Below, piece after piece: positions 9,448-32,499 of a stretch of 64,000 nt of DNA. The position numbers were made by a program, and so were the translations under genes. This DNA comes from Muribaculaceae bacterium (lineage in GTDB: Bacteria > Bacteroidota > Bacteroidia > Bacteroidales > Muribaculaceae). The stretch lies in contig JAFOXR010000043.1 of assembly GCA_017391675.1 (NCBI GenBank), positions 4,339 to 68,338 of the forward strand, in the 5' to 3' direction. Within the stretch, counting starts at the first letter, position 1; every line of letters starts with the position of its first letter. Below the pieces are notes generated by a model. It saw only the letters and a program-made list of their open reading frames with translations, had not been told where the DNA came from and did not search any database.

Positions 9448-9480
9448 TCTGTTATTATGACTATATAGAATTGTAAAAGT

Positions 9481-10165: not shown

Positions 10166-10187
10166 GTGATGTCTTTAGTGGGTGAAT

Positions 10188-11078: not shown

Positions 11079-11108
11079 AAAAAAATGAGTTTATAGTTTA
11101 TTATTAAT

Positions 11109-13361: not shown

Positions 13362-13370
13362 AATTCGGTG

Positions 13371-13378
13371 CAAAGTTA
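13371..13378 (-). promoter_or_regulatory. Bacteroidetes -7 promoter box TAACTTTG for the TonB-dependent receptor
   Basis: Reverse complement of caaagtta. It matches TAnnTTTG exactly and lies about 10 nt upstream of the proposed ATG. Confidence 0.55.
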
Positions 13379-13533
13379 CGATATAAAAAAACAAACTGCA
13401 ATCACTATATGTAGTGAAATAAACGGCCAAGGGCATGAGTGCTTTTTTTGAGACTGCTGTTGAAAGTCTAAATTTTTGAAAAAAAAGACGATAATTAATG
13501 AAATGGAAATTAGTTTAAATAGAAAAGAATCAT

Positions 13534-13541
13534 TATCTTTG
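13534..13541 (+). promoter_or_regulatory. Bacteroidetes -7 promoter box TATCTTTG at the head of the nuoA leader
   Basis: Exact TAnnTTTG match on the plus strand, about 270 nt upstream of the nuoA ATG. I found no other TTTG-type box between it and nuoA. Confidence 0.5.
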
Positions 13542-13725
13542 CACAATGAAAATAAGGCTGTGCAAGTGTTGTGCAGGAATGATGATAACTATTGCCATGT
13601 CTTATTAATTAAGTACTTAATTTGAAATATATGTATTTGATGTGTAATGTAAATATTACAAAGGGCTTAGCGTGTGCAGTTTTGTGTACGCCTGTTTTTG
13701 TCTTTACACATGAAATGCTTTGAGG

Positions 13726-13776
13726 GTGAGTCTTGGCTCTGCGGTATGCAGAAGCGCGGGACTCATTAATTTTTTT
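13726..13776 (+). terminator. Terminator-like extended hairpin plus U-tract immediately upstream of nuoA (candidate attenuator or sRNA 3' end)
   Basis: Outer stem gtgagtc / gactcat, inner stem gctctgc / gcaga(a)gc with a 5-nt loop, then taattttttt. There is no upstream plus-strand gene that it could terminate. Confidence 0.5.
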
Positions 13777-13809
13777 AGTGATAAATATAAATTGGTTTAA
13801 TAATATTTT

Positions 13810-14178
13810 ATGGAGTTATTAAGTATTCAGAGTACGACGCTAATGGTAACTGCATTGCTTACAGGTATAGGACTTGTGGCAGCTGCTCTTATCATAGCTA
13901 AGTTGATATCGCCTAAGTCTTACTCTCCGCTAAAGGGAAAGTCTTATGAGTGCGGTGTTCCTACGAGAGGTGAAAGTATGATGCAGTTCAAGGTGGGTTA
14001 CTACTTGTTCGCAATCCTTTTCTTGATGTTTGATGTGGAAACTGTATTTTTGTTCCCATGGGCAGTAGTGTGCAAGACATTGGGAACTGCAGGCCTTGTT
14101 AGCGTGGGAATATTCTTGGCAGTATTAATTTTGGGCTTGGCATATGCTTGGCGGAAAGGAGCTTTGGAATGGAAATAA
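13810..14178 (+). CDS. nuoA: NADH-quinone oxidoreductase subunit A
   Basis: 122-aa three-TM protein with the conserved YECG.P and FDVE..FLFPWA motifs. Confidence 0.93.
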   Translation: MELLSIQSTTLMVTALLTGIGLVAAALIIAKLISPKSYSPLKGKSYECGVPTRGESMMQFKVGYYLFAILFLMFDVETVFLFPWAVVCKTLGTAGLVSVGIFLAVLILGLAYAWRKGALEWK

Positions 14179-14780
14179 AGATAAAGAGCATGAAGCGCGA
14201 CGATTGGAAGGATAATGAATATATCGACCAATTGGTAGAAGAACTTAATGCAAGTGGCGCTAATGTCGTAGTAGGTACGCTAGACAAACTTATAAACTGG
14301 GGTCGCGCAAACTCATTGTGGCCATTGTGTTTCGGTACCAGCTGTTGTGCTATTGAATTCATGCATTTGGGCGCAGCTCGTCATGATATGGCTCGTTTTG
14401 GTTTTGAGGTAACACGAAACTCTCCTCGTCAAGCCGACCTTCTTATGGTGAACGGAACAATCACATATCGTATGGCTCCAGTGCTTATGCGTCTGTACGA
14501 ACAAATGGCTGAACCTAAATATGTGATAGCTACTGGTAGCTGTAACATTTCAGGCGGTCCATTCATTGGTTCACACTGCGTAGTTCAAGGTTTGGATAAA
14601 TTGCTGCCTGTTGATGTGTGGATTCCAGGTTGTCCTCCAAGACCAGAGGCTATGTATTACGGAATGATGCAGCTTCAACGCAAAATCATGACTCAAAAGT
14701 ATTTTGGAGGCGTGAACCGTCAAGAAAAATTGAAGGATTTCTTGGCAGAGCATCCTGAAGAAGCTGAAGGATTGAAGTAA
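14169..14780 (+). CDS. nuoB: NADH-quinone oxidoreductase subunit B
   Basis: N2 cluster ligand motifs are present: GTSCCAIEF and GSCNISGGPF..., then PGCPPRPE. I chose the start at MEIKIKS, which overlaps the nuoA stop. The ORF track start at 14148 and the ATG at 14190 are alternatives. Confidence 0.9.
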   Translation: MEIKIKSMKRDDWKDNEYIDQLVEELNASGANVVVGTLDKLINWGRANSLWPLCFGTSCCAIEFMHLGAARHDMARFGFEVTRNSPRQADLLMVNGTITYRMAPVLMRLYEQMAEPKYVIATGSCNISGGPFIGSHCVVQGLDKLLPVDVWIPGCPPRPEAMYYGMMQLQRKIMTQKYFGGVNRQEKLKDFLAEHPEEAEGLK

Positions 14781-14845
14781 ATTCGGCAGTCAGAAACAGA
14801 GAGGAGAAACTTATAATAACGAAAATAGTTACACATATATATAAT

Positions 14846-16480
14846 ATGGTGAATTTACAAGAAAAAATCGCAAGCCTATGTCCATCGGCAACATTTGAAG
14901 AGGGCGAATACCTTCTAGTAAATGTGGCAGATAAAGAATGGCACTCTTTGGCTGAAAGTCTGAAGAAGGAATTAGGCTTCGACTACTTAGTGTCGGTAAC
15001 CGGAGTTGATTGGAATGAATCACTTGGCTGTATGTATTATTTGACAAACACCGAAACTAACGAAAAGGTGAGTGTGAAAGTGGCAACAACCGATCGTGAA
15101 AACCCAATGCTTCATAGCGTGAGCGACTTGTGGAAAGTGGCTTTGATTCAAGAGCGTGAAGTATATGACTTCTTCGGTATCGTGTTTATTGGACATCCTG
15201 ATATGCGTCGTCTTTTCATGCGTACCGATTGGGTGGGATATCCGTTAAGAAAGGATTATGATGCCAATCCTGAACTGAATCCTATTCGTCTTGATGCTGA
15301 AGAAAATGAAGATGACAGCTTCGTGGTAACCGAAGATGAAAACGGAAAATTGACTAAGACTGATTATAAGATATTCAGTGAAAACGACTATGTCGTAAAC
15401 TTTGGCCCTCAACACCCATCTACACACGGTGTGATGCGTTTGCGTAGCGCAGTAGATGGTGAAACAATCACAAAGGTTGTGCCAGTGTGCGGTTATATCC
15501 ACCGCGGTATAGAGAAATTGTGTGAAGGAAAAACTTATCCTCAAACACTCTTCTTCACCGACCGTATGGATTATATGAGCTCTTGCCAGAACCGTCACTG
15601 CTTGTGCTTGTGTATTGAAAAGGCACTAGGCCTAGAAGTTCCTCGTCGTGCTCAGATTATCCGCGTAATGTTTGACGAGTTGATGCGTATCGGTTCACAT
15701 ATTCTAGCTTATGGATGTATGGCTATGGATATGGGTGCAACTACCGCATTCGTTTATGGTTTCCGTGAACGAGAACAATTGATGGATATCTTTGAAAAGA
15801 CAACAGGTGGCCGTATGTCTCAACACTATCATGTGATAGGTGGTGTGGCTGCCGATGTTCACCCTGATTTCATAAAAGATGTGCGTGAATTCTGTGCAAT
15901 CCTGCCTAGCAAAGTGAAGGAATACCACACATTGGTTACTGGCAATGTGATTTTCAAGAACAGAACTATAGGTGTGGGTGTGATAGGCAAGGAAGATGTG
16001 ATAAGCTATGGTACTAGCGGACCTAATGGCCGTGCTTCAGGCTGGTCATGCGATGTGCGTAAGCGTGCACCTTATGCAATCTATAATGAATTGAACTTCG
16101 ATGAAGTAATTTACAACGAAGGCGATAGCTTTGCCCGTTATATGGTGAGAATGGACGAAGTGATGCAAAGCGTGAAGTTGCTGGAACAGCTATGCGACAT
16201 GCTTGAAAAAGAAGAAGGTAACGAATATATCGCACCAAAGGTGCCAAAGATTATTAAGTTGCCTGCAGGTCACTGGTTCCAGGAAGTTGAAGCTAGCCGT
16301 GGCGCATTTGGCGTATATATCGAGAGTGACGGTGGAAAGAATCCATACCGCATGCACTTCAATAGCCCTGGTTTGAACCATGTGGCAGCAGTGGATAAGT
16401 GTTGTGCAGGCTATAAGATTGCCGACTTGATAACAATCTCGGCTTCTTTGGACTATGTAATTCCTGATATCGACCGATAA
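14846..16480 (+). CDS. nuoCD: NADH-quinone oxidoreductase fused subunits C/D
   Basis: 544 aa. The N-terminal NuoC-like part contains EREVYDFFGI.F.GHPD.RRL. The C-terminal NuoD part contains NFGPQHPSTHGV.RL and ends in DIDR. Confidence 0.93.
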   Translation: MVNLQEKIASLCPSATFEEGEYLLVNVADKEWHSLAESLKKELGFDYLVSVTGVDWNESLGCMYYLTNTETNEKVSVKVATTDRENPMLHSVSDLWKVALIQEREVYDFFGIVFIGHPDMRRLFMRTDWVGYPLRKDYDANPELNPIRLDAEENEDDSFVVTEDENGKLTKTDYKIFSENDYVVNFGPQHPSTHGVMRLRSAVDGETITKVVPVCGYIHRGIEKLCEGKTYPQTLFFTDRMDYMSSCQNRHCLCLCIEKALGLEVPRRAQIIRVMFDELMRIGSHILAYGCMAMDMGATTAFVYGFREREQLMDIFEKTTGGRMSQHYHVIGGVAADVHPDFIKDVREFCAILPSKVKEYHTLVTGNVIFKNRTIGVGVIGKEDVISYGTSGPNGRASGWSCDVRKRAPYAIYNELNFDEVIYNEGDSFARYMVRMDEVMQSVKLLEQLCDMLEKEEGNEYIAPKVPKIIKLPAGHWFQEVEASRGAFGVYIESDGGKNPYRMHFNSPGLNHVAAVDKCCAGYKIADLITISASLDYVIPDIDR

Positions 16481-16520
16481 AATAAACAAAGAATAGTAAT
16501 TTAAAGAACAAATAACAGAT

Positions 16521-17597
16521 ATGTTTGATTTCAGTATAGTTACAGGTTGGCTGCATAATTGGCTTCTTGGCTTCATGCCAGAATGGCTAACTACGACCGT
16601 AGAGTGCGTGTTGATAGGTGTACTTATGATTGTGGCCTACGCTGTATTGGCGATGGTGTATATATTTTATGAACGCAAGTTGTGTGCATGGATGCAATGC
16701 CGTCTAGGTCCTACTCGTGTAGGTCCTTGGGGTTTGTTCCAGCTGTTTGCCGATGTGTTCAAAATGCTTATTAAGGAAATTATCCGTCTTGAAAACATTG
16801 ACCGTTTCCTATTTGCTCTTGCCCCATATCTAGTAATCGTGGCTTCAATGCTTACATTTGCATGCTTGCCATGGGGTAACGGATTGCAAATCATAGATTT
16901 CAATATTGGAGTATTCTTCATGGTTGCGGCATCTTCAATAGGTGTGCTAGGTATTTTGCTTGCAGGTTGGTCAAGTAACAATAAGTATACACTTATCGGT
17001 GCGATGCGAAGCGGCGCGCAAATGGTAAGTTATGAACTTTCTGTAGGCTTGTCAATCCTTACTATCGTAGTATTGGCAGGAACAATGTCAATAACTGAAT
17101 TGGTTGAAGCTCAAAGCGATGGCTGGTTCTTGTTCAAGGGACACATTCCAGCATTCATTGCTTTTGTGATATATTTGATTGCAGCAAATGCAGAAACAAA
17201 CCGTGGTCCATTCGATATGCCTGAAGCAGAGCATGAGCTTACTGCAGGATATCACACCGAATATTCGGGTATGCACTTCGGATTCTTCTATTTGGCTGAA
17301 TATTTGAACTTGTTCATCGTTTCAGGAATTGCTTCATTGCTGTTCTTGGGAGGCTGGATGCCATTGCATGTTCCTGGCTGGGACGGTTTCAACGCAGTTA
17401 TGGATTACATTCCATCAATTGTATGGTTCATAGGTAAGGCATTGTTTGTGACATTCCTTTTGATGTGGTTCCGTTGGTCTTATCCACGCGTGCGTATTGA
17501 CCAAATGTTAAAATTGGAATGGAAATACTTGATGCCAATAGGTCTATTCAACCTTATCCTGATGACATTGGTTGTAATGTATGACTTGCATTTCTAA
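16521..17597 (+). CDS. nuoH: NADH-quinone oxidoreductase subunit H
   Basis: 358-aa polytopic protein. Motifs ERK..AWMQ.R.GP.RVGPWGL.Q..AD..K, and [22 protein letters not shown]. Confidence 0.93.
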
Positions 17598-17625
17598 TTT
17601 ATAGAGAAATAAAACAATATTATAA

Positions 17626-19146
<1,521 letters not shown>

Positions 19147-19165
19147 TAAATTATTATAACGAGAT

Positions 19166-19399
19166 ATGACACTGAATATAATATCGGCTGAACAGGTGGA
19201 ATTTACCGGGACTGTGACAAAAGTGACACTTCCTGGTGCTCAAGGATTGTTTACAGTGCTTGAGAATCACGCGGCCTTGATTGCATCTCTAGTTGCCGGA
19301 AAACTGGTCTATACACAGGACGGCAATGATGTGACAATGGAAATTAAAGGCGGTATTGCCGATGTAAACCATAATGTAGTGTCGGTGTGTCTGTATTAA
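19166..19399 (+). CDS. atpC: F1 ATP synthase subunit epsilon (short form, beta-sandwich only)
   Basis: 77-aa ORF directly after atpD. The N-terminal pattern (LNIIS.E...F.G.V..V.LPG..G.F.VL..H) is typical of the epsilon N-domain. No C-terminal helical hairpin is encoded. Confidence 0.8.
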   Translation: MTLNIISAEQVEFTGTVTKVTLPGAQGLFTVLENHAALIASLVAGKLVYTQDGNDVTMEIKGGIADVNHNVVSVCLY

Positions 19400-19410
19400 T
19401 TCCGTGAGAT

Positions 19411-20466
19411 ATGAAGAAAGTTCTTTCCATATTATTGACTCTGATGATGGCGCTGTCGGTTGCACCGTTTGCGGCTCAGGCAAGTGACCATTCATCGGGA
19501 GTAGAAGATCCCAAGGGTATTATTTTTGAACACTTGGGAGATACCTATGGCTGGGCGGCTCCGTTCTCTCACAGCACCTACATTCCATTGCCTATTATAG
19601 TGCGCGACTGCAATGGCGACTGGCATGTGTTCAGTTCGGCTCGTGTTGAGCATGGCGCTACTTATGACGGATTTAAGATTTCCAGTGAAGGAGAGTATAA
19701 AGGCAAACTGGTAGGGACCGATGCTAATGGCGCAGAGTATCGTCCATTGGACATATCTATCACTAAGAATGTAGCAGCATTATTCATTTCGGCTTTGGTT
19801 GTAGTGCTATGTGTAATGAGCATATACCGATGGTATAAGAAGAACCCGTTGAAAGCTCCGCGCAAAGGTACTGCGTTCCTTGAACTGATAGTGGAATTTG
19901 TGTACAGCAGTGTAGTGCGTCCAACTTTGGGAAAGAATGCCAAGAAGTTTGGCCCTTATCTGCTCACTGTATTCTTCTTGATATTGATAATGAACTTGCT
20001 AGGCTTGATAGTGATATTCCCTGGAGGAGCCAATCTTACAGGTAATATAGCTGTGACTCTGGTTCTTGCATTGTTCACATTCTTCATTACCAATGTGTTC
20101 GGAACAAAACACTATTGGAAAGAAGTGTTCTGGCCAGATGTGCCATTGTGGTTGAAGTTCCCACTGCCAATCATGCCAATGATTGAGCTGTTTGGTCTTT
20201 TCACAAAGCCTGCTGCGCTTACTATCCGTTTGTTTGCCAACATGATGGGCGGACACATCATAGTGCTTGTATTGACATTGTTGATTTTCATCTTCGGTGC
20301 ATTTGGTGCCGCTGCTATGGGAGTGACAACAGTCGTATCGGTAGCATTCTCATTGTTCATGCTGTTGCTTGATACACTAGTGAGCTTTATTCAGGCATTC
20401 GTGTTCACAATGCTGTCGGCATTATTTATTTCTATGGCACAAGAAGGTCATGGAGAAGAAATTTAA
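19411..20466 (+). CDS. atpB: Fo ATP synthase subunit a with N-terminal signal peptide and extra-membrane extension
   Basis: 351 aa. The C-terminal part carries the a-subunit signature with the essential Arg (LTIRLFANMMGGH). The N-terminal 120 aa or so comprise a signal peptide (MKKVLSILLTLMMALSVAPFAAQA) plus a soluble segment. Confidence 0.9.
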   Translation: MKKVLSILLTLMMALSVAPFAAQASDHSSGVEDPKGIIFEHLGDTYGWAAPFSHSTYIPLPIIVRDCNGDWHVFSSARVEHGATYDGFKISSEGEYKGKLVGTDANGAEYRPLDISITKNVAALFISALVVVLCVMSIYRWYKKNPLKAPRKGTAFLELIVEFVYSSVVRPTLGKNAKKFGPYLLTVFFLILIMNLLGLIVIFPGGANLTGNIAVTLVLALFTFFITNVFGTKHYWKEVFWPDVPLWLKFPLPIMPMIELFGLFTKPAALTIRLFANMMGGHIIVLVLTLLIFIFGAFGAAAMGVTTVVSVAFSLFMLLLDTLVSFIQAFVFTMLSALFISMAQEGHGEEI

Positions 20467-20493
20467 TTGAAAATAAAATAAACAAAATATTAA

Positions 20494-20775
<282 letters not shown>

Positions 20776-20785
20776 ATAAGATAGA

Positions 20786-21283
20786 ATGGAACTGTTCTCG
20801 CCTGATTTCGGCTTGATATTCTGGATGTTTCTTACAGTACTTCTTCTTGTTGTGCTGTTGGGTAAATTCGCGTGGCCATTTATCGTGAAGACTCTTGAAG
20901 AAAGAGCCGACTTGATCGATAAAGGCGTTGAGTATGCCCAAGACGCAAAGGAACAGTTGGAGAATGCTCAGAAAGAAGCAGCCAAATATGTAACCGAAGC
21001 ACAGAAACAGCAAGCTGAAATCTTGCGCGAAGCTGCCAAGATGAAAACTCAGATTATTGAGGAAGCAAAAGAAGCGGCAGCTGTTGAGGCTAAGAAGGTA
21101 ATGGACGCTGCAAAGCTGTCTATCGAGCAAGCGCGCAAGGAATCGGAGATGCAATTCCGCAGTGAGGTGAGCCAATTTGCATTGCAGATTGCCGAAAAGG
21201 TAGTTCGCAAGGATTTGGCTGACGATAAGTCACAAGCCGAGCTTGTGGATAAATTGTTGAATGAGGTTGAGACTAAAAACTAG
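20786..21283 (+). CDS. atpF: Fo ATP synthase subunit b
   Basis: 165 aa with one N-terminal TM helix, then a long charged coiled-coil rich in A, E, K and Q. Its operon position is between atpE and atpH. Confidence 0.88.
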   Translation: MELFSPDFGLIFWMFLTVLLLVVLLGKFAWPFIVKTLEERADLIDKGVEYAQDAKEQLENAQKEAAKYVTEAQKQQAEILREAAKMKTQIIEEAKEAAAVEAKKVMDAAKLSIEQARKESEMQFRSEVSQFALQIAEKVVRKDLADDKSQAELVDKLLNEVETKN

Positions 21284-21288
21284 TAGTT

Positions 21289-21831
21289 ATGAATGACGGA
21301 CTTATTCCAAATCGGTATGCGAAAGCGCTTTATAAGTATGCGCAGGAATTAGGAATGGCGCAGGCGGTTTATGCTCAAATGAAGCAGCTGTCGGCAAATT
21401 ATGCTCTGTTGCCCGAATTGAAAAAGGCAGTAGACAATCCATTCTTGCCTGTAGCCGATAGGGAAAAAGTGCTTTTGTCGGCATCTGGTGCTGAAAAGGA
21501 CAGTTGTCTTGACAAATTCATATTGATGGTGATTAAGAACAACCGTGAATGCTTTATGCGCGAAATATCGTTGGCTTATGGCAAAATATACCGTGAGGCC
21601 AATAATATAGCGCAGGTGAATATCACTACGGCAGTAGAACTGCCTAATGATAAGCTATCGCAAATAGTAGAAGTGATACAGGCACAGCTTAACGGCAAAA
21701 CCGTAGAAGAAACGGTAACAGTGGATTCGTCGCTGATAGGCGGATTCAAGGTGCAGGTGGATTCAATGGTGCTTGATACTTCGATCAGTAATGAATTAAA
21801 GAAATTGCGTTTAAAACTCTTAAAGAGATGA
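21289..21831 (+). CDS. atpH: F1 ATP synthase subunit delta (OSCP)
   Basis: 180 aa. N-terminal RYAKALY motif and C-terminal GGF.V.VD..V.D.S....L..L, typical of delta/OSCP. Confidence 0.88.
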
Positions 21832-23405
21832 TAAATCCAAGTGAGGTATCAGAAATATTAAAGAAAGAACTCAGCGAAGTCAATACCAAGACCGCGTTTG
21901 AAGAAGTTGGCACCGTGCTAAGCGTAGGTGACGGCGTAGCGCATGTATACGGACTCGAAAATGTAAAGGCTAATGAGCTTGTTGAATTCGAGAACGGCGT
22001 GACAGGCGTTGCTATGAACCTTGAAGAAAGCAATGTGGGTGTAATTCTTCTTGACAAGGTGAACGAGGTGACCGAGAATATGAGCGTGCGCCGTACAGGA
22101 AAAATCGCATCTATCGAGGTGGGAGAAAATCTTCTTGGACGCGTAATCAATATCCTTGGAGAGCCTCTAGACGGTAAAGGCCCTATTGAAGGAAAGATGG
22201 TGAGAATGCCTCTTGACCGTAAGGCTCCTGGCGTTATTTTCCGTCAACCTGTGAATCAGCCTTTGCAAACCGGTATTAAGGCGATTGACTCGATGATTCC
22301 AATCGGCCGTGGTCAGCGTGAGCTTATTATCGGTGACCGCCAGATTGGTAAGACTGCTATCGCTATTGATACCATTATAAACCAACGAAGCGGATATGAA
22401 GCAGGCAAACCAGTGTACTGTATCTATGTAGCAATAGGACAAAAGGCTTCAACCGTTGCGCAAATCGTGAATGAATTGAAAGAGCATGGCGCTTTAGAGT
22501 ATACAGTTGTGGTGGCAGCTACTGCTTCCGACTCTGCTTCAATGCGTTATTATGTACCTTTTGCCGGAGCGGCGATAGGTGAGTACTTCCGCGACTCTGG
22601 CCGTGATGCTCTTATTGTATATGATGACTTGTCTAAGCAGGCTGTGGCATATCGTGAGCTATGTCTTATCTTGAAGCGTCCTTCGGGCCGTGAAGCATAT
22701 CCTGGTGATATCTTCTATCTTCACTCTCGTTTGCTAGAGCGTGCAGCTAAGATTATCGACAATCAGAAGGTGGCTGAAGCCATGAACGACCTTCCTGAGG
22801 ATATGAAACCTCTAGTGAAGGGTGGCGGTTCTCTTACAGCTCTTCCTATTATCGAAACTCAGGCTGGTGACGTGTCGGCATATATTCCTACCAATGTGAT
22901 TTCAATTACCGACGGACAGATTTATCTTGAATCAGGATTGTTCAACAATGGTGTTCGTCCTGCTGTGAATGTGGGTATCTCAGTGTCACGTGTGGGCGGT
23001 AATGCTCAAATCAAGTCAATGAAGAAAGTGGCTGGTACGCTGAAGATTTCTCAGGCACAGTTCCGTGAATTGGAATCGTTCACTAAGTTTGGTGGTGACA
23101 TCGACCCTGTAACTGCTATGACTATCGATAAGGGCCGTAAGAATGAACGCCTGTTGATTCAGCCTCAATATACGCCAGTTCCTGTTGAAGAACAGATTGC
23201 GGCAATTTATTGCGGTACTCAAGGCTTGATGAGCGATGTTCCGCTAGATAAAGTGTCGGAATTTGAGAAGTTGTTTATACAGACCTTGAAAGTGAAGTAT
23301 CAGGCAGAAGTGCTTGATGTGCTTAAAAGTGGCGTTATAAATGACGATGTGACAGCAAAATTGGCTGAAGTAGCTAAGCAAGTAGCAGCAAATTATAAGA
23401 ACTAG
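21828..23405 (+). CDS. atpA: F1 ATP synthase subunit alpha
   Basis: 525 aa. Walker [10 protein letters not shown] plus the conserved block [39 protein letters not shown] overlap with atpH. Confidence 0.97.
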
Positions 23406-23413
23406 TATATACT

Positions 23414-24304
23414 ATGGCAACCTTACGCGAGTTAAAAGGAAGAATCGGTTCTGTGGCATCGACTGGAAAGATTACTGGTGCCATGAAGATGATTTCGTCG
23501 GCTAAAATGCATAAGTATGAGCAAGCGTTGAAGCGTTTGGTGCCTTTCCGTGAACAGGTTCAGTCCGTAATAGGACATTTGCTTGCGGCTGAAGGCGAAT
23601 ACACCTCGCCGCTTATAGAAGAGCGTGAGGTGAAAAGTATAGCATATCTGGTTTACGGCTCGGACGACGGATTGTGTGGAGCTTATAACAATAACATATA
23701 CAAGGGACTGCTTGAATATGTAGGAAAGGCTAGAGAACAATATGGCAATGGCATTGATGTGACTGTGCTTCCAGTAGGAAAGAAGATGACTAAAGCTAGT
23801 ATGCGTATGGTCGGTACGGGCGTTAATGTTGAGCCTGTAACTTCGATACACACACGCAGCACACAGAAAGATGTGGCTGAATTTGCCGAAATGCTGAAGG
23901 ATAAGTTCCTTAATAAGGAATATGACTTGGTAGAGGTAATATTTATGCACTATCACTCTGTGAGCCGTCAAGTTCTTGTAAAGGAACAGCTGTTACCAGT
24001 ATCTTATGATGTACTTGTGGCCGAAAGTTCAAGTGCAGTCAATAAGAATGCTCCATGCCTGCTTGAACCAGATGGAAATACTATCTTCAACAGCGTACTT
24101 CCGTTATACCTGCTCTCTATGGTGCAGACTCAATTCACCGAGAACAATGCATCGGAACAGGCTGCTCGTGTAATGGCTATGCAGAGCGCGAGTGATAACG
24201 CCAAGACATTGCTTGAAACTTTACAGCTAGAATACAATAAGTTGAGACAACAAGGCATTACAACCGAGTTGCTTGATATTGTGGGCGGTCAAGTGGAACG
24301 ATAA
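23414..24304 (+). CDS. atpG: F1 ATP synthase subunit gamma
   Basis: 296 aa. N-terminal L.E.K.RI.SV..T.KIT.AMKM.S.AK, and C-terminal LQLEYNKLRQQGITTELLDIVGG. Confidence 0.93.
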   Translation: MATLRELKGRIGSVASTGKITGAMKMISSAKMHKYEQALKRLVPFREQVQSVIGHLLAAEGEYTSPLIEEREVKSIAYLVYGSDDGLCGAYNNNIYKGLLEYVGKAREQYGNGIDVTVLPVGKKMTKASMRMVGTGVNVEPVTSIHTRSTQKDVAEFAEMLKDKFLNKEYDLVEVIFMHYHSVSRQVLVKEQLLPVSYDVLVAESSSAVNKNAPCLLEPDGNTIFNSVLPLYLLSMVQTQFTENNASEQAARVMAMQSASDNAKTLLETLQLEYNKLRQQGITTELLDIVGGQVER

Positions 24305-24323
24305 AAGGAAAATAACAATGAAT

Positions 24324-24353
24324 AAGGAGAATGTTTATACCGGTTCTCCTTTG
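24324..24353 (+). promoter_or_regulatory. 8-bp perfect hairpin overlapping a partial -7-like box (CTCCTTTG) in the atpG-nuoI spacer
   Basis: aaggagaa (24324-24331) pairs with ttctcctt (24344-24351) across a 12-nt loop. No U-tract follows. The TTTG at 24350-24353 lies 51 nt upstream of the nuoI ATG. Confidence 0.3.
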
Positions 24354-24403
24354 CAAATAATAGTAATTTCGGTATAGTAGTGTTTTTAAGTGTACTTAAA
24401 TTT

Positions 24404-24955
24404 ATGAGTATTAAGGAATATTTTTCTTCTCTTTTCAAAGGGATTGTGAGCCTTCTGAAAGGATTGCAGGTTACGGGTAAAGAGCTTGTTACTCCAAAGG
24501 TAACATATCAGTATCCTGAAAATAGAGCTACGCTTGAGATTCCTGAACGCTTCAGAGCGACACTGGCGTTTAAATACGACAGCGAGGGATATCACAAGTG
24601 TATTGCATGCGGACTATGCCAAATGAACTGTCCGAACGGTTCTATCAGTATTGAATCCAAAATGGTGGAAATGCCTGATGGAAAGAAAAAGAAAAAACTT
24701 GAAAAATACATGTATGACCTAGGCAGCTGTACATTCTGCATGCTGTGCGTTACATCATGTGCCGCAAAGGCTATAGAGTTTACCAATGAATTTGAGCAAG
24801 CTGTGTTCACTCGTGAGAAACTGAAGAAGCAGTTGAACTATCTGCCTGAAAAGGAAAAGCCTGCTCCAGCGCCTAAGCCTGCTGCTCCTGCTGTGAAAGC
24901 CGAAGAGCCTGCTGCTAGTGCTGCACAAGAAGAAAAAAAACAAGAAAATAATTAA
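24404..24955 (+). CDS. nuoI: NADH-quinone oxidoreductase subunit I with a Pro/Ala/Glu-rich C-terminal tail
   Basis: Two 4Fe-4S motifs, CIACGLCQMNCP and CTFCMLCVTSCAAKA. I chose the start at the ATG (MSIKEYF) rather than the GTG at 24380. The C-terminus reads EKEKPAPAPKPAAPAVKAEEPAASAAQEEKKQENN. Confidence 0.9.
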   Translation: MSIKEYFSSLFKGIVSLLKGLQVTGKELVTPKVTYQYPENRATLEIPERFRATLAFKYDSEGYHKCIACGLCQMNCPNGSISIESKMVEMPDGKKKKKLEKYMYDLGSCTFCMLCVTSCAAKAIEFTNEFEQAVFTREKLKKQLNYLPEKEKPAPAPKPAAPAVKAEEPAASAAQEEKKQENN

Positions 24956-24957
24956 AT

Positions 24958-25473
24958 ATGGAATCAGTAGGAAATATTATTATGTATTTCATAATTGCGC
25001 TTGCAATTATCGTGTTCTCGGTGCTGACGGTGACCACAGGCAAGATATTGCGTGCGGCAACATATTTGCTTTTCGTATTGTTTGCAACAGCCGGAATTTA
25101 TTTCCAGATGGGATATGAGTTCCTTGGTGCTGTGCAGATTGCAGTGTATGCGGGAGGTATACTAGTGTTGTTCGTGTTTGCTATCTTCCTTACAGGAAAG
25201 CCAGGCAAGGCATCAGAACCCCTTGAATCTAGCAAAAAGAAGATAGGGTTAAGTGCGGCCATTCTGGGTGCATTAGTGTGTGGATACGCTTTGTTCTCAA
25301 AGGCGGATATGTGTAACGCAGTGGTTTCTCAGCCAATTGATGTTACAATCAACAATATAGGCTCTATGTTGTTGAGCACCGAAAAGTTCGGCTATCTGTT
25401 GCCTTTCGAAGCAATAAGTATCCTGTTGTTAGCATGTATAATTGGTGGTATTGTAATTGCCCGTAAACGATAA
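24958..25473 (+). CDS. nuoJ: NADH-quinone oxidoreductase subunit J
   Basis: 171-aa membrane protein with the conserved region F.LGA.Q..VYAGGI.VLF.F. Operon position supports the call. Confidence 0.88.
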   Translation: MESVGNIIMYFIIALAIIVFSVLTVTTGKILRAATYLLFVLFATAGIYFQMGYEFLGAVQIAVYAGGILVLFVFAIFLTGKPGKASEPLESSKKKIGLSAAILGALVCGYALFSKADMCNAVVSQPIDVTINNIGSMLLSTEKFGYLLPFEAISILLLACIIGGIVIARKR

Positions 25474-25485
25474 GGAGAGATAGAT

Positions 25486-25797
25486 ATGGACTTGACATTA
25501 TTGATGTATCTTGTACCCAGCTTGATTATGTTCTGCTGTGGAGTTTATGGGTTCGTTACCCGCAAAAATATGATTGCAGTGTTGATATCTCTAGAGCTTA
25601 TGCTTAATGCTGTGGATATTAATTTTGTAGTGTTTAACCGATTCTTGTTCCCGGGTGAGATGGAAGGCATGTTCTTCTCATTGTTTGCCATCGCGATAGC
25701 GGCTGCGGAAACTGCACTAGTGATAGCTATTATCATCAATGTGTTCCGTATGGCTAAGAATATCGATATTCGTGAACTTACTAAAATGAAATTTTAA
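25486..25797 (+). CDS. nuoK: NADH-quinone oxidoreductase subunit K
   Basis: 103-aa three-TM protein with the conserved SLELMLNA and AAAE.A..LA motifs. Confidence 0.9.
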   Translation: MDLTLLMYLVPSLIMFCCGVYGFVTRKNMIAVLISLELMLNAVDINFVVFNRFLFPGEMEGMFFSLFAIAIAAAETALVIAIIINVFRMAKNIDIRELTKMKF

Positions 25798-25802
25798 GCT
25801 TT

Positions 25803-27743
25803 ATGGATTTCTCATATTCTTATTTAGTATTGGTGCTCCCATTGGTGACATTCCTGTTCTTGGGACTGATGGGAACCAGATTGAGCAGAAAGACTGCCGG
25901 AGTGGTGGGTACTTCTATGATGGGTATAACAGCTGTCATAGCGTATGCTATTTCTCTAGCTTATTTCTTTGGAACAGACCAGGGTCAGATTATTGAAGGA
26001 ATCCGCCAACAAATAGTGGCATGGGACCTTACTTGGCTTGAGTTCAGCGAAAAACTTGTGATAAAGATAGGCTTCTTGCTTGATCCTATTTCGGCAATGA
26101 TGCTTATCGTGATAACTACGGTATCATTCTTGGTGCACTTGTATAGCTTGGGCTATATGCAGGATCATAACCATGAGTATGAAAAAGGCTTGCAACGCTA
26201 CTATGCGTTCTTGTCACTTTTCTCATTGTCAATGCTAGGTCTTGTAGTGGCTCCAAACATTTTCCAGATGTATATATTCTGGGAGCTTGTGGGTGTGTCA
26301 TCATACTTGTTGATTGGATTCTATTACACATTGCCAGCTGCAGTATCGGCTTCAAAGAAGGCGTTTATCGTTACTCGTTTTGCCGATCTAGGCTTCTTGG
26401 TAGGTATTCTTATCCTTTCATATTTCACTCAGACATTTGACTTCATCACGCTTACAAGCAATCCGACTGCAGCAATAGAAACAGCAGGTGGTGCAACCTT
26501 CATGGGCTGTTCAGTAATGGCGTGGGCGTTGACCTTGATTTTCATGGGTGGTGCAGGTAAATCGGCAATGTTCCCATTGCATATATGGTTGCCTGACGCT
26601 ATGGAAGGTCCAACTCCAGTATCGGCGTTGATTCACGCTGCTACCATGGTTGTTGCCGGTGTATTCTTGATTGCCCGTATGTTCCCATTGTACTGCATGG
26701 AAGAAGGCACAATGACTGTGATTACAGTTATCGGTGCATTCACAGCATTCTATGCAGCTGCAGTAGCATGCGTGCAGAGCGATATCAAGCGCGTGCTTGC
26801 ATTCTCTACTATTTCGCAAATCGCATTCATGGTAACATCGCTAGGTGTTGCGCGTCCTGAATTGCATGAAGGTGTGGGTTACATGGCTTCAATGTTCCAC
26901 TTGTTCACTCACGCAATGTTCAAGGCGTTGCTGTTCTTGTGTGCAGGTGCAATCATTCACGCTGTACACAGCAACGAAATGAGCGCTATGGGCGGTCTTC
27001 GCAAGTACATGCCTATTTGTAATATTGCATTCTTGATTGGCTGTCTTGCTATTGCAGGTATTCCTCCATTTGCAGGATTCTTCAGTAAGGACGAAATCCT
27101 TGTCGCTGCATTTGAACAGCACACATTCTGGGGTATCTGGATGATGCTAGTTGCTGGTATGACAGCATTCTATATGTTCCGTCTATACTACAAGATTTTC
27201 TGGTGGAACAATCCTGACTACGGTCACCACACTCCACACGATGCGCCTATGACAATGTCTTTGCCATTGATTATCCTTTCGGTGGTTTCAATAGTAGCAG
27301 GTCTTATCCCATTCGGAGAATTCGTGTCATGGAACCGTGAGGCTTATCACATTCACTTGAATTATACAGTGGCTATAAGCAGTGTGGCTGTGGCAGTAGT
27401 AGCAATTCTTCTTGCAACAAAGTTGTACTTGAAGGAAAACGAAGCACCAGCAAAGATGGCGAAATCATTTAAGGGCTTGTGGACTGCAGCTTATAACCGT
27501 TTCTATATGGACGAGTTGTATCAGTTCATTACTCATAAGATTATATTCGAGAGAGTGAGCCGTCCATTGGCATGGTTTGACCGTCAGATCGTTGATGGCT
27601 CGTTGAACAGTCTTGCTAACCTAGCTAATTCAGCATCGTTTGCAATACGCAAACTTCAATCAGGCAGCATACAGTCTTATGTATATGTATACTTGATTGG
27701 CGTATTGTTGCTTGCTGCAATTACAGTGATATGTTTAATCTGA
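25803..27743 (+). CDS. nuoL: NADH-quinone oxidoreductase subunit L
   Basis: 646-aa antiporter-like subunit. Motifs WE.VG..SYLLIGF, KSA.FPLH.WLPDAMEGPTPVSALIHAATMV.AG and HAMFKALLF, with a long C-terminal extension (lateral helix). Confidence 0.93.
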   Translation: MDFSYSYLVLVLPLVTFLFLGLMGTRLSRKTAGVVGTSMMGITAVIAYAISLAYFFGTDQGQIIEGIRQQIVAWDLTWLEFSEKLVIKIGFLLDPISAMMLIVITTVSFLVHLYSLGYMQDHNHEYEKGLQRYYAFLSLFSLSMLGLVVAPNIFQMYIFWELVGVSSYLLIGFYYTLPAAVSASKKAFIVTRFADLGFLVGILILSYFTQTFDFITLTSNPTAAIETAGGATFMGCSVMAWALTLIFMGGAGKSAMFPLHIWLPDAMEGPTPVSALIHAATMVVAGVFLIARMFPLYCMEEGTMTVITVIGAFTAFYAAAVACVQSDIKRVLAFSTISQIAFMVTSLGVARPELHEGVGYMASMFHLFTHAMFKALLFLCAGAIIHAVHSNEMSAMGGLRKYMPICNIAFLIGCLAIAGIPPFAGFFSKDEILVAAFEQHTFWGIWMMLVAGMTAFYMFRLYYKIFWWNNPDYGHHTPHDAPMTMSLPLIILSVVSIVAGLIPFGEFVSWNREAYHIHLNYTVAISSVAVAVVAILLATKLYLKENEAPAKMAKSFKGLWTAAYNRFYMDELYQFITHKIIFERVSRPLAWFDRQIVDGSLNSLANLANSASFAIRKLQSGSIQSYVYVYLIGVLLLAAITVICLI

Positions 27744-27772
27744 TTTAGAAACGGTCTTAATACTTAAGAAAA

Positions 27773-29278
27773 ATGATTTGGGAAAATATATTAATTTATT
27801 TCGTCGTAATACCAGTGCTTACATTGGCTGGTTTGGCGATATGCAAGAATATTAAGCAAGTAAGAGCCGTATCTATAGTTGGCGCTTCAGCCTTGATGGT
27901 CTTGGGCGTATATGTATTGATAGAATTCTTGCAGCTTCGTGCGGCAGGAAATGTAGAAGAGATGTTGTTCCGTGGCGACTGGTCATGGTTTGAACCTCTC
28001 AACATAAAACTGTCATTAGGTGTTGATGGAATTTCGGTAGCAATGCTATTGCTTTCATGTGTGATTGTATTTGCTGGCGTGTTTGCATCATGGAATATGG
28101 ATCCGCTTCCTCGTGAATATTTCATGTGGTTCTGGTTGTTGTCAACCGGTGTGTTCGGATTCTTTATCGCAATAGACTTGTTTGCAATGTTCATGTTCTA
28201 TGAAGTAGCGCTTATCCCAATGTACCTGTTGATTGGTGTATGGGGAAGCGGCAACAAGAACTATTCAGCCATGAAGCTTACGCTTATGCTTATGGGAGCA
28301 TCGGCATTGTTGATGCTTGGCATTATCGGAATCTATTTCCATTCGGCAGCCGATGGCAACCTTACTATGAATATCCTTGAAATTGCAAAGAACAATGCAA
28401 TTCCAAATAACTGGCAGTATTTCTTGTTCCCTATGACTTTTGTAGGCTTCGGTGTGCTAGGTGCAATGTTCCCATTCCACACATGGAGTCCTGACGGTCA
28501 CGCATCAGCTCCTACTGCAGTGTCAATGCTACACGCAGGTGTGTTGATGAAGCTGGGAGGTTATGGCTGTTTCCGCATTGCCATATACTTGATGCCTCAC
28601 GCTGCTAATGAATTGGCATGGATATTCTTGATCTTGACAGGTATCAGCGTTGTGTATGGAGCATTCAGTGCATGTGTACAGACCGACTTGAAGTATATCA
28701 ATGCTTACTCTTCGGTGAGCCACTGCGGTATGGTATTGTTTGCAATATTGATGCTTAACACTACTGCAATGACAGGTGCAATCATGCAGATGCTTTCACA
28801 CGGTCTTATGACAGCGTTGTTCTTCGCCTTGATCGGTATGATCTACGGCAGAACTCACACTCGTGATATCCGCAAGATGGGTGGTCTAATGCAGATTATG
28901 CCATTCTTGGGAGTTGGATATGTGATAGCAGGTCTTGCTAACCTTGGTTTGCCAGGCTTCAGCGGTTTCGTTGCCGAAATGACAATCTTTGTTGGTTCAT
29001 TCGCTCATGCCGATATGTTCCACAGAGTATTGACAATAATGGCATGTAGCGCGATTGTGATTACAGCTGTATATATTTTGCGAGTTGTGGGCAAGATGCT
29101 TTATGGTCCAGTGTATGATGATCATCACCGCACATTGACCGATGCAGTATGGCATGAAAAGTTTGCAGTAATCACACTTATCGTGTGCGTTGCTGGATTA
29201 GGATGCTTCCCTAACTTCTTTAATGAGATTATTTACGACAGCTTTGCGCCAATCATCAAGGCGCTAGGAGCTTTCTAA
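27773..29278 (+). CDS. nuoM: NADH-quinone oxidoreductase subunit M
   Basis: 501-aa antiporter-like subunit. Motifs FMFYE..LIPMYLLIG.WG, FPFHTW.PDGH..APTAVSMLHAGVL.KLGGYG and SSVSH.G. Confidence 0.92.
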   Translation: MIWENILIYFVVIPVLTLAGLAICKNIKQVRAVSIVGASALMVLGVYVLIEFLQLRAAGNVEEMLFRGDWSWFEPLNIKLSLGVDGISVAMLLLSCVIVFAGVFASWNMDPLPREYFMWFWLLSTGVFGFFIAIDLFAMFMFYEVALIPMYLLIGVWGSGNKNYSAMKLTLMLMGASALLMLGIIGIYFHSAADGNLTMNILEIAKNNAIPNNWQYFLFPMTFVGFGVLGAMFPFHTWSPDGHASAPTAVSMLHAGVLMKLGGYGCFRIAIYLMPHAANELAWIFLILTGISVVYGAFSACVQTDLKYINAYSSVSHCGMVLFAILMLNTTAMTGAIMQMLSHGLMTALFFALIGMIYGRTHTRDIRKMGGLMQIMPFLGVGYVIAGLANLGLPGFSGFVAEMTIFVGSFAHADMFHRVLTIMACSAIVITAVYILRVVGKMLYGPVYDDHHRTLTDAVWHEKFAVITLIVCVAGLGCFPNFFNEIIYDSFAPIIKALGAF

Positions 29279-29310
29279 TTTGTAGTGTTGAAAAATAAAA
29301 CTAAGAGAAA

Positions 29311-30774
29311 ATGGATTATTCACAATTTTTAAATATGCCGCAAGAAATAGGACTGCTAGTAGTGTTCTTATTGGTATTCTTGTATGACACATTCATGTCA
29401 AAGAAGGTGCAAAATGCTCTACCGGTGTTCACTTGTGTGGCTTTTGGTTTGTTCACCATTGCAAATTTGTTCTTTGCCTATGAAGAAGGTACAATCTTCG
29501 GAGGTATGTTTGAAACGACTCAGGCAACAGTAGCTATCAAGGCGATATTGAATATTGGTATGCTTATCGTGCTTATCCAATCAATCAAATGGGCTAATAG
29601 CGAGTATATGACAGTGCGCAGAGGCGAATTCTATGAATTGCTGCTAATAACATTGTTTGGTATGTACTTCATGATTTCAGCGCGTCACTTCCTGATGTTT
29701 GTAATCGGATTGGAAACAGCGTCATTGCCATTGGCTGCATTGATAGCATTCGAAAAGAATCGCTACGAAAGCCATGAAGCAGCAGCTAAGTATATGTTTA
29801 CTGCAATATTCTCTTCAGCAGTATTCATGATGGGCTTGTCATTCGTGTATGCATTGAGCGGTTCGTTGTATTTCAGCGACATTGCACTGTCTGTTATGGG
29901 TGAAAAGTCAACAATGCTTATCGTTGCTCTTGCATTTGTGATTGCTGGTGTAGGCTTCAAGTTGTCTCTTGTTCCATTCCACTTGTGGACTGCCGATGTT
30001 TATCAAGGAGCTCCTACTCCTGTAACAGGATACTTGTCGGTTATTTCAAAGGGATCAGCAGCATTCGGATTCATGGTAATTCTTGTGCAAGTGTTCGGCT
30101 CAGTATATGATATGGCATGGGAATGGATGCTTTATGCATTGATCGTGCTTACTATCACACTAGGTAACTTGTTCGCTATCCGTCAGCGCAATATGAAGCG
30201 TTTCTTGGCATTCTCTTCAGTGTCGCAAGCTGGTTATATCATGCTTGGTATCATTTCGGCGAATGCGCTTGGTCTTGGATCGTTGATGTATTATGTACTA
30301 GTGTATGTGCTTTCAAACTTGGCTGCATTTGGCGTGATTGGAGCTATTGAAAATAAGACTGGTAAGGTGATGATGGCCGACTATAACGGTTTGCGCAGCA
30401 CCAATCCATGGTTGTCATTTGCTATGATGCTTGCGATGTTCTCGCTTGCAGGTATTCCTCCGTTTGCAGGATTCTTCAGCAAGTTCTTTATCTTCACTAG
30501 CGCATTGAGTACAGGCAGCGTTGCATTGTATGTACTAGTGCTTATCGCATTGCTTAACACTATCATCTCATTGTATTACTACTTGCTAGTGGTTAAGGCT
30601 ATGTTCATCAATAAGCCGGGTGAAGAAGGTGCTATCGCTCCATTCAAGAGCGCTTGCAGTGAGCGTTTGGCTATGATTGTATGTGTGCTTGGCATTATCC
30701 TTGTGGGTATTGTGAGCTGCATCTACTCAGGCTTGATTGAAGCAGCAGAATCTTCTGTCACAATGTTCATGTAA
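29311..30774 (+). CDS. nuoN: NADH-quinone oxidoreductase subunit N
   Basis: 487-aa antiporter-like subunit. Motifs GLE..SLP, PFHLWTADVYQGAPTPVTGYLSV.SK and KR.LAFSSVSQAGY. Confidence 0.92.
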   Translation: MDYSQFLNMPQEIGLLVVFLLVFLYDTFMSKKVQNALPVFTCVAFGLFTIANLFFAYEEGTIFGGMFETTQATVAIKAILNIGMLIVLIQSIKWANSEYMTVRRGEFYELLLITLFGMYFMISARHFLMFVIGLETASLPLAALIAFEKNRYESHEAAAKYMFTAIFSSAVFMMGLSFVYALSGSLYFSDIALSVMGEKSTMLIVALAFVIAGVGFKLSLVPFHLWTADVYQGAPTPVTGYLSVISKGSAAFGFMVILVQVFGSVYDMAWEWMLYALIVLTITLGNLFAIRQRNMKRFLAFSSVSQAGYIMLGIISANALGLGSLMYYVLVYVLSNLAAFGVIGAIENKTGKVMMADYNGLRSTNPWLSFAMMLAMFSLAGIPPFAGFFSKFFIFTSALSTGSVALYVLVLIALLNTIISLYYYLLVVKAMFINKPGEEGAIAPFKSACSERLAMIVCVLGIILVGIVSCIYSGLIEAAESSVTMFM

Positions 30775-30795
30775 TTGAATATCTTATATACGGGA

Positions 30796-30831
30796 AAGAG
30801 AGGCAACCAAGAGGTTGTCTCTCTTTTTTTG
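30796..30831 (+). terminator. Strong rho-independent terminator ending the nuo/atp block
   Basis: 12-bp stem agagaggcaacc / ggttgtctctct (one G-U pair), 4-nt loop, then a run of seven T. Confidence 0.85.
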
Positions 30832-30849
30832 TATATGGATAAAAAACAG

Positions 30850-30857
30850 TAAATTTG
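30850..30857 (+). promoter_or_regulatory. -7 promoter box TAAATTTG
   Basis: Exact TAnnTTTG match, 35 nt upstream of the ATG at 30892. Confidence 0.5.
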
Positions 30858-30891
30858 CATTATGTTAACTGCTAGATAAAAAAGATTGATT

Positions 30892-31485
30892 ATGAGAAGA
30901 ATTTGGTCTTATGTTGCACTATGCGCAAGTCTGTCGTTGGGTTATATTTTAATCTCGTGTTCACAAGGTAACATGAAAGAAAATGCAGAGGGTGATACTG
31001 ATACTGTAATCGTGGTAGGTGGAGAAGATGAAACTGTAATTGCTGAAGAACAGAAGAATGAGAAACAGCATAAGGAAGAAGTTTTGCGTGATAAGGAAGG
31101 TGAAGACGAAAAAAATAACATAGAAGTACAGCCTAAGGTGGAGGAAGCTCCAAAGGAGATAGGGGCTAGTCCTGATGCCGTTTATTTCCTTGATGATTCA
31201 GAAACGGAGAGTACACCAAAATATCCTGAAGGAGAAAAGGCTTTGAAGAAGGCTCTTAAGAATAAGCTGCGAAAAGCCAAGAAAGGTGAGAAGGCAAAGT
31301 TCCGTGCAAGCATTGTAATAAAGAGCGACGGCAGTGTGGGACGAGTGCAGTTTACAGAGTGCGGATATAACGATGAGTATAAAGCGGAGATCGTAGATGC
31401 TCTCAAATCTTTGCCTGCATTTGAGCCTGGAATGAAGGACGGGAAAGCTGTGGATTCATGGTATTATTTGAATTATAAGCGTTAA
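30892..31485 (+). CDS. Lipoprotein with a TonB C-terminal-like domain
   Basis: Signal peptide with lipobox (LGYILISC), then an E/K-rich low-complexity linker. The C-terminal 90 aa or so (YPEGEKAL...ASIVIKSDGSVGRVQF...AEIVDALKSLPAFEPGMKDGKAVDSWY) resembles a TonB_C fold. The ATG at 30892 is preferred to the TTG at 30886. Confidence 0.6.
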   Translation: MRRIWSYVALCASLSLGYILISCSQGNMKENAEGDTDTVIVVGGEDETVIAEEQKNEKQHKEEVLRDKEGEDEKNNIEVQPKVEEAPKEIGASPDAVYFLDDSETESTPKYPEGEKALKKALKNKLRKAKKGEKAKFRASIVIKSDGSVGRVQFTECGYNDEYKAEIVDALKSLPAFEPGMKDGKAVDSWYYLNYKR

Positions 31486-31564
31486 TTTACGGGCTTTATA
31501 CAAAATCCGATGTGTGAAATAGCTTTTTTATTCTATAAATTATGCTAATTTCATGATAAATGAG

Positions 31565-31572
31565 TACTTTTG
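31565..31572 (+). promoter_or_regulatory. -7 promoter box TACTTTTG
   Basis: Exact TAnnTTTG match, 46 nt upstream of the ATG at 31618. Confidence 0.5.
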
Positions 31573-31617
31573 CAAAACAAATAACATGTTTAAGCGAAAG
31601 TTGAGTAAACTTTAGAA

Positions 31618-32451
31618 ATGAGAATAATAGCGGAAAGTAGTTCTACGAAGTCGGTATGGGCTTTGGTGGAAGATGGAAATATAGTTGAAAGTGTAAAAAT
31701 AGAAGGTATAAATCCGTTTTTCCAGTCAAGAAGAGAAATCAGTCATATAATACGATTAGGTTTGCCCGACACTTTTTTCAGGCGTCGTTGGGAGCATGTT
31801 GACCTTTATTGCTCAGGCTGTACAAGCGTAGAAAAAAAGAAGATCGTTGAGGCTTCGGCTGTGGCTCAGTTCAAGACTCCGGTAACAGTTGAAAGTAACT
31901 TGCTGGGTGCAGCTCGTGGCCTGTTAGGAAAGAAATCGGGGATCGTAAGTATCTTGGACTCAGGTTCCAGCTCTTGCCAATATGACGGTAACGGAATCGA
32001 AAAGCAGGTAAGTTCCTTAGGGTTTATTCTTGGAGATGAAGGTAGCGGTGCTGCTCTAGGACGAATTCTGTTGAGCGATTGCCTAAAAGATGTGGCTCCA
32101 AAAGAAATTTCGGATTTGTTCTATGACAAGTATAAATTGACGACCGACGAGATAATGGACGAAGTCTACACTACGAATGCAACCAACAAGTGGCTTAGCA
32201 AGTATGCTTCGTTCTTGTCGGAACATATTGATAACGAATATGTTAATGCGTTGGTAAGAGGAGAGCTGAAACGCTTCTTTGTGCGTAACATATTGCAGTA
32301 TGATTACGAAAAATATCCAGTGAGTTTCGTTGGAGAAATAGCATGTATGTATGAAAAGGAACTTAAGGAAGTTGCTGCCGAACTAGGTGTTTCGGTTGAC
32401 TCAATAGAAAAAAATGCGCTTCCTGGTTTGGTGAAGTATCATACGATATAA
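31618..32451 (+). CDS. BadF/BadG/BcrA/BcrD-type ATPase family sugar kinase (GlcNAc/MurNAc kinase paralog)
   Basis: 277 aa and colinear with the MurK-like protein at 46137-46982. Shared blocks are STK..W, GFILGDEGSGA.LG..L and the F.G.IA..Y region. Its phosphate-1 motif is AESSSTK rather than ADCGSTK. Confidence 0.7.
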   Translation: MRIIAESSSTKSVWALVEDGNIVESVKIEGINPFFQSRREISHIIRLGLPDTFFRRRWEHVDLYCSGCTSVEKKKIVEASAVAQFKTPVTVESNLLGAARGLLGKKSGIVSILDSGSSSCQYDGNGIEKQVSSLGFILGDEGSGAALGRILLSDCLKDVAPKEISDLFYDKYKLTTDEIMDEVYTTNATNKWLSKYASFLSEHIDNEYVNALVRGELKRFFVRNILQYDYEKYPVSFVGEIACMYEKELKEVAAELGVSVDSIEKNALPGLVKYHTI

Positions 32452-32499
32452 ACGCTTTTTCTATAGAAAGCAAACAGCTATAAGCGTGACGATTTGAAT

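Follow-up and report, generated by a model that had tools for sequence, protein, structure and literature searches.

The stretch of Muribaculaceae DNA considered here, 64,000 nucleotides of contig JAFOXR010000043.1 (referred to throughout as the window), carries a complete F1Fo ATP synthase operon nested within the nuo operon of an NDH-1-like, complex I-like enzyme. Matches to Pfam families assign 18 open reading frames (ORFs) on the + strand at 13810-30774, in the order nuoA-B-CD-H, atpD-C-B-E-F-H-A-G and nuoI-J-K-L-M-N. The groups comprise four, eight and six genes, respectively, with nuoC and nuoD fused, and all 18 ORFs are intact. The nuo genes are therefore present as two blocks, separated from the ATP synthase genes by the nuoH-atpD spacer (junction 1) and the atpG-nuoI spacer (junction 2). 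The components of the unit are as follows.

13810-17597, + strand: first nuo block (nuoA, B, CD, H) of an 11-subunit NDH-1-like complex, by Pfam
13810-14178, + strand: nuoA (PF00507)
14190-14780, + strand: nuoB (PF01058)
14846-16480, + strand: nuoCD, fused (PF00329 and PF00346)
16521-17597, + strand: nuoH (PF00146)
17598-17640, + strand: nuoH-atpD spacer (junction 1), 43 nt, A/T-rich and unstructured, minimum free energy -1.8 kcal/mol
17641-24304, + strand: complete F1Fo ATP synthase operon, eight Pfam subunit matches
17641-19146, + strand: atpD, beta subunit (PF00006/PF02874/PF00306, shared by alpha and beta)
19166-19399, + strand: atpC, epsilon subunit (PF02823)
19411-20466, + strand: atpB, a subunit (PF00119)
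20524-20775, + strand: atpE, c subunit (PF00137)
20786-21283, + strand: atpF, b subunit (PF00430)
21289-21831, + strand: atpH, delta subunit (PF00213)
21828-23405, + strand: atpA, alpha subunit (PF00006/PF02874/PF00306, as for beta)
23414-24304, + strand: atpG, gamma subunit (PF00231)
24305-24403, + strand: atpG-nuoI spacer (junction 2), 99 nt
24404-30774, + strand: second nuo block (nuoI-N) of the NDH-1-like complex, by Pfam
24404-24955, + strand: nuoI (Fer4 families)
24958-25473, + strand: nuoJ (PF00499)
25486-25797, + strand: nuoK (PF00420)
25803-27743, + strand: nuoL (PF00361, common to nuoL, nuoM and nuoN; PF00662 is also matched in the nuoI-N block)
27773-29278, + strand: nuoM (PF00361)
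29311-30774, + strand: nuoN (PF00361)

Pfam upholds every + strand ORF assignment in the nested order that an initial annotation had read from this DNA, and the intactness of the ORFs of the unit and the lengths of the two spacers likewise stand as first described. The same annotation spoke of 22 ORFs in a 22-gene unit, which was a miscount of the 18 genes. The start of nuoI was taken to be the ATG at 24404, which matches public gene calls and gives the 99-nt length of the atpG-nuoI spacer.

The window encodes NuoA, B, C, D, H, I, J, K, L, M and N as judged by Pfam, and within the interval 13810-30774 of the window there are no ORFs for NuoE, NuoF or NuoG. The same set of 11 subunits without nuoEFG is present in Bacteroides fragilis 638R, in which the nuo operon consists of ten adjacent genes, BF638R_0841-0850 (Ito et al. 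2020, PMC7002350). In contrast with these contiguous genes, eight atp genes part nuoH from nuoI in the window. In B. fragilis the complex does not contribute measurably to NADH:quinone oxidoreductase activity, and its electron donor is unknown (PMC7002350).

The ATP synthase genes between nuoH and nuoI specify all eight F-type subunits (alpha, beta, gamma, delta, epsilon, a, b, and c), each matched above the Pfam gathering score. Their order resembles that of the Na+-translocating N-ATPase operon (atpDCQRBEFAG) in that both begin with atpD and atpC followed by membrane subunits. An N-ATPase identity was considered and rejected: the window has a delta subunit gene at 21289-21831 and no atpQ or atpR, the 11-nt spacer between atpC and atpB holding no extra small ORFs. 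The enzyme is thus an ordinary F-type ATP synthase. The c-rings of Na+-coupled enzymes, such as that of Ilyobacter tartaricus, are known for a glutamine (Q) in helix 1 and an E-S/T pair. The c subunit in the window contains a ...GIGIGKIG... segment and the conserved carboxylate E, with neither the helix-1 Q nor the E-S/T pair, and the lack of this Na+-binding signature points to H+ coupling on the basis of motifs. The a subunit (AtpB) is 351 aa long and has an N-terminal extension of ∼120 residues (19411-19780) with a signal-peptide-like start, MKKVLSILLTLMMALSVAPFAAQA. This extension is annotated as DUF8433 in Pfam, and the a subunits of relatives, which range from 351 to 375 aa, carry the same annotation. 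On one public contig with an identical NuoH (L005, 11121-12626), atpD is called as two ORFs of 298 aa and 191 aa, unlike the intact gene in the window, owing either to a strain frameshift or stop or to an assembly error.

The prevalence of the nested order was surveyed with NuoH as the query and one genome per species of the Genome Taxonomy Database (GTDB). The best 80 of at least 542 relatives (L011-L090), with NuoH identities of 71-89%, were classified by tblastn with the 18 window proteins, and the junctions were then extracted. The gene directly after nuoH is atpD in 79 of the 80 species representatives, and nuoI directly follows atpG in every one of the 67 loci that extend far enough. The nested set includes a cultured type strain, Paramuribaculum intestinale DSM 100749 (L079), as well as Ca. 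Amulumruptor caecigallinarius (L056), Ca. Avimuribaculum pullicola (L035), and a metagenome-assembled genome (MAG) of Sodaliphilus (L064), all four genera of which we take to be Muribaculaceae. Two more contigs with an 80%-identical NuoH (P0120) are also nested. As for the window itself, the NCBI name for the 100%-identical NuoH is 'MAG: Muribaculaceae bacterium', the near-identical NuoH is likewise named Muribaculaceae bacterium, and many of the closest records are titled Muribaculaceae. The sole contiguous nuoA-B-CD-H-I-J-K-L-M-N locus in the survey (L083) is titled "uncultured Phocaeicola sp." and is placed outside all nested loci in a neighbour-joining tree of NuoCD and NuoH. The depth of the nested clade shows in its pairwise NuoCD plus NuoH identities, which fall as low as 59%. 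Together with the ten adjacent genes of B. fragilis, this contiguous outgroup bears out the statement in the initial annotation that model Bacteroides keep the nuo genes together.

The arrangement has a published precedent. In an analysis of 30 genomes of S24-7 ("Ca. Homeothermaceae", now Muribaculaceae), passages of Ormerod et al. (2016, Microbiome 4:36, PMC4936053) describe an 11-subunit complex I without NuoEFG in 25 of the 30 genomes, and an F-type ATP synthase integrated within the complex I locus. One of their genomes, H5, lacks both complexes and is a candidate secondary loss. The family, the NuoEFG-less complex and the integration are the same in the window as in those passages. The order had been put forward as unusual and possibly novel, with the proviso that occurrence throughout the family would make it typical of the lineage; the survey shows it in 79 of the 80 closest species representatives, and the family order has been in print since 2016. 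The nuo-atp nesting is thus the typical Muribaculaceae order, already known from the literature and from annotated public genomes, and the window adds one more member and no new kind of system. What is new relative to the passages of the 2016 paper is modest and concerns regulatory anatomy: the nuoH/nuoI insertion point with its exact junctions and spacer lengths, the distribution of promoter motifs, and two hairpins, one in the nuoA leader and one in the atpG-nuoI spacer.

The signals that may govern transcription of the unit are the following.

13534-13541, + strand: candidate Bacteroidetes-type -7 box, TATCTTTG, 276 nt upstream of nuoA
13726-13766, + strand: terminator-shaped hairpin in the nuoA 5' leader (GTGAGTC...GACTCAT), followed by TAA and a run of seven T (13770-13776)
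24324-24351, + strand: 9-bp hairpin in the atpG-nuoI spacer, -10.1 kcal/mol
24337-24343, + strand: loop word ATACCGG, with a near reverse complement, CGGTATA, at 24370-24376
30795-30830, + strand: intrinsic terminator after nuoN, a 14-pair stem with one G-T pair, loop AAGA, and a run of seven T

Generic predictors contributed little to this list. A sigma-70 scan returned 34 sites against 43.6 expected and was uninformative because the promoter consensus of Bacteroidota is different; the TAnnTTTG motif was used instead. A terminator scan returned 13 sites against 13.3 expected and missed the + strand terminator after nuoN, and candidates were therefore folded directly. A search of Rfam over 12500-32500 at E <= 1 gave only a chance-level match that overlaps the nuoN terminator. 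The box TATCTTTG is the only + strand intergenic TAnnTTTG in 13400-30845 that does not overlap a start codon. In 71 of 73 related species the motif occurs in the 450 nt preceding nuoA, at a density of 2.56 per kb compared with a background of 0.374 per kb. At the other end, the nuoN terminator is the strongest in the unit (-26.9 kcal/mol; RNAfold, 30785-30835). The initial annotation had named it the only convincing one; besides it, there are the hairpin in the atpG-nuoI spacer and, just outside 13810-30774, the terminator-shaped hairpin in the nuoA leader. The claim of that annotation that the nuoH-atpD spacer has neither a hairpin nor a TAnnTTTG box was confirmed by folding and by a motif scan. 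From these signals, transcription would run from the candidate Bacteroidetes-type promoter, ∼276 nt before nuoA, to the nuoN terminator, and a single transcript would co-express an H+-pumping quinone reductase and an H+-coupled ATP synthase.

Three other accounts of the locus were weighed, the simplest of which is an assembly chimera, with the atp block misjoined into the nuo operon of a metagenome bin. The window apparently comes from an uncultured organism, as the MAG-derived name of its identical proteins indicates, which is the one point in favor of such an error. Public assemblies contain a NuoH identical to that of the window in 353 indexed blocks, and the 10 contigs inspected (L001-L010; 50-100 kb, independently assembled from different samples with MEGAHIT, SPAdes, and other assemblers) all share the gene order, both junctions and the upstream neighbours, with no sign of a chimera. 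The same order recurs in 79 other species representatives, the cultured type strain among them. The nested order is not an assembly artefact, and the likelihood of a chimera is close to nil. Recent horizontal acquisition, whereby a mobile element or horizontal transfer would have inserted a foreign atp operon within nuo solely in this lineage, is very improbable as well, and no point in its support was found. GC content is even throughout the nuo-atp unit (0.40-0.47), and no integrase or transposase ORF is present among the ORFs within the atp block. A search across the block for direct or inverted repeats that link the junctions found none, which argues against a recognisable mobile-element footprint. 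The two junctions recur throughout the family, and atpDC-BEFHAG with a delta subunit is the usual F-type gene order of Bacteroidales. With both junctions shared by all nested loci and the contiguous locus as the outgroup, parsimony points to a single ancient event. The simplest history is inferred to be one ancient rearrangement and vertical inheritance thereafter, which fits the even GC and the lack of repeats and mobile genes. In a family ancestor, a Bacteroidales-type F1Fo operon (atpDC-BEFHAG) would have been placed between nuoH and nuoI of a NuoEFG-less NDH-1-like operon, and the nested arrangement would have been passed on vertically from then onward.

The third account accepts the nesting and denies it any regulatory consequence: nuoA-H, atpD-G, and nuoI-N would be adjacent yet separate units, each with its own promoter and terminator. 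Junction 1 gives this account little room. The nuoH-atpD spacer has a median of 42 nt across 79 species representatives and measures 22-60 nt in 68 of them, is essentially without predicted structure in nearly all, and contains TAnnTTTG in none of the 79. In 35 of 67 species, the atpG-nuoI spacer is likewise short (19-60 nt) and unstructured. Such spacers leave scant room for a terminator and a promoter together, and the sequence as a whole favors one main unit. Conservation of the order across a clade with just 59% NuoCD plus NuoH identity would also be expected under selection as an operon. Several observations weigh against a single uniform transcript. Junction 2 is enlarged to 99-344 nt in the subclade to which the window belongs and harbors a conserved hairpin there; in L015, L017, L018, L021, and L022 this hairpin takes the canonical shape of a terminator, with an A-run, a stem, and a run of five T. 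TAnnTTTG is present in the atpG-nuoI spacer of 7 of the 67 species, immediately upstream of nuoI, and promoters unlike TAnnTTTG would escape the motif scan. A separate nuoI-N transcript is hence possible in some lineages, and the terminator-shaped spacer hairpin of the sister species makes partial uncoupling of nuoI-N possible. In the window, the corresponding hairpin is weak, is followed only by TTTGC, and has no TAnnTTTG after it. As to origin, the survey, which covers the 80 closest NuoH of at least 542 relatives, does not fix the node at which the nesting arose. On balance, wholly separate units are unlikely, although they retain more weight than the two preceding accounts. Transcription of the 18 genes mainly as one unit is the most likely arrangement suggested by the sequence, and co-transcription from the single promoter upstream of nuoA is plausible. 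We are highly confident that this is the standard Muribaculaceae respiratory locus, most simply read as the product of one ancient nesting and vertical inheritance, with its 18 genes most likely forming mainly one transcription unit.

The enlarged junction 2 has a common architecture in 16 species of the subclade, consisting of a purine-rich run followed by the hairpin. The sister loci that harbor this element are L011, L012, L015, L017, L018, L021, L022, L026, L028, L030, L034-L037, and L040. The stem arms change in a compensatory manner between species (GGAGAA/TTCTCC, GGTGA/TCACC, GGGTGGG/CCCACTC, GGAGAG/CTCTCC, and GGAAGT/ACTTCC), and RNAalifold recovers six pairs, five of which show compensatory double changes. 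The loop ends in ATACCGG in all species sharing the architecture. A nearly invariant CCGGTAT, the reverse complement of the loop word, lies 18-75 nt downstream, replaced in some species, including that of the window, by TCGGTAT or a weaker match; it is followed closely by a conserved GATTTGACTTATCT block and the nuoI ATG. The topology of ATACCGG and CCGGTAT is compatible with a pseudoknot or with alternative pairing. In a few species (e.g. L030, L034, L036, and L040), TTTG precedes CCGGTAT at a promoter-like spacing. ATACCGG occurs three times in the window against 2.94 expected, and at this chance frequency it is not a dispersed motif. No Rfam match was found for the spacer element. Through partial termination, stabilisation of the mRNA, or a secondary promoter, the element may shift nuoI-N expression relative to that of nuoA-H and atp.

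Species in the half of the family to which the window belongs have a long nuoA leader, extending 270-410 nt from the -7 box, with the leader hairpin downstream of TAnnTTTG. Of 38 species in this half, 33 have a strong hairpin with a T-run at 33-90 nt before the start of nuoA; the leaders of the other half are short and lack it. The hairpin is found at the same position in L011, L014, L016-L018, L021-L029, L033-L040, L042-L048, L064, and L067, and the copy from the species of the window (L010) has a predicted energy of about -24 kcal/mol. The hairpin is closed by RTGRGY...RCTCAT, or a one-base variant, in 24 of 28 examined, and its interior is hypervariable. It has no match in Rfam. Since the gene upstream of nuoA is divergent, the hairpin cannot be the terminator of that gene. 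The most economical reading of its position and shape is a transcription attenuator that would gate the whole unit; alternatively, it may be the 3' end of a small RNA derived from the leader. An upstream small ORF beginning at the ATG or GTG in the 5' arm of the hairpin was considered and rejected because the reading frames are not conserved (L016, for example, reads ATG AGC TGA). The leader also contains a perfect 14-nt palindrome, ATTAAGTACTTAAT, at 13608-13621, which is kept in the closest relatives (L011-L013) and not further out, and could be an operator-like site.

Both hairpins are minor leads restricted to a clade. For the half of the family with the window, the leader hairpin could fine-tune the unit by attenuation and the hairpin after atpG by partial termination or mRNA stabilisation. 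The stronger proposal, that two undescribed cis-acting RNA elements, a leader attenuator and an atpG-nuoI element, govern the 18-gene unit in this half of the family, is unlikely. If it were true, the leader attenuator would jointly gate the ATP synthase and the complex I-like enzyme, and the spacer element would determine how many nuoA-H plus atp transcripts are made relative to those of nuoI-N.

The surroundings of the unit are partly shared among relatives. The divergent upstream neighbours on the - strand (8537-13436) are partly conserved in comparison with L091 and L092 (3500-6630). A TonB-dependent receptor (775 aa) and a protein of 285-296 aa without a family adjoin nuoA, and both are also present in the loci with an 80%-identical NuoH. 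Further upstream, the species of the window encodes an ECF-type sigma factor of 185 aa and has two small ORFs. A gene located 11 kb downstream of the unit (42153-44948, + strand) encodes a 931-aa fusion of FAD_binding_4, FAD-oxidase_C, a 4Fe-4S dicluster domain, and a CCG cysteine-rich domain. This domain composition looks like that of a membrane-associated lactate/glycolate-type dehydrogenase that could feed the quinone pool.

The nested order provides a stable, family-wide synteny marker for Muribaculaceae. The arrangement suggests that members of the family, which is abundant in the gut, express a NuoEFG-less, complex I-like proton pump together with the ATP synthase, and such joint expression would bear on the role and the electron donor of the 11-subunit complex of Bacteroidales.

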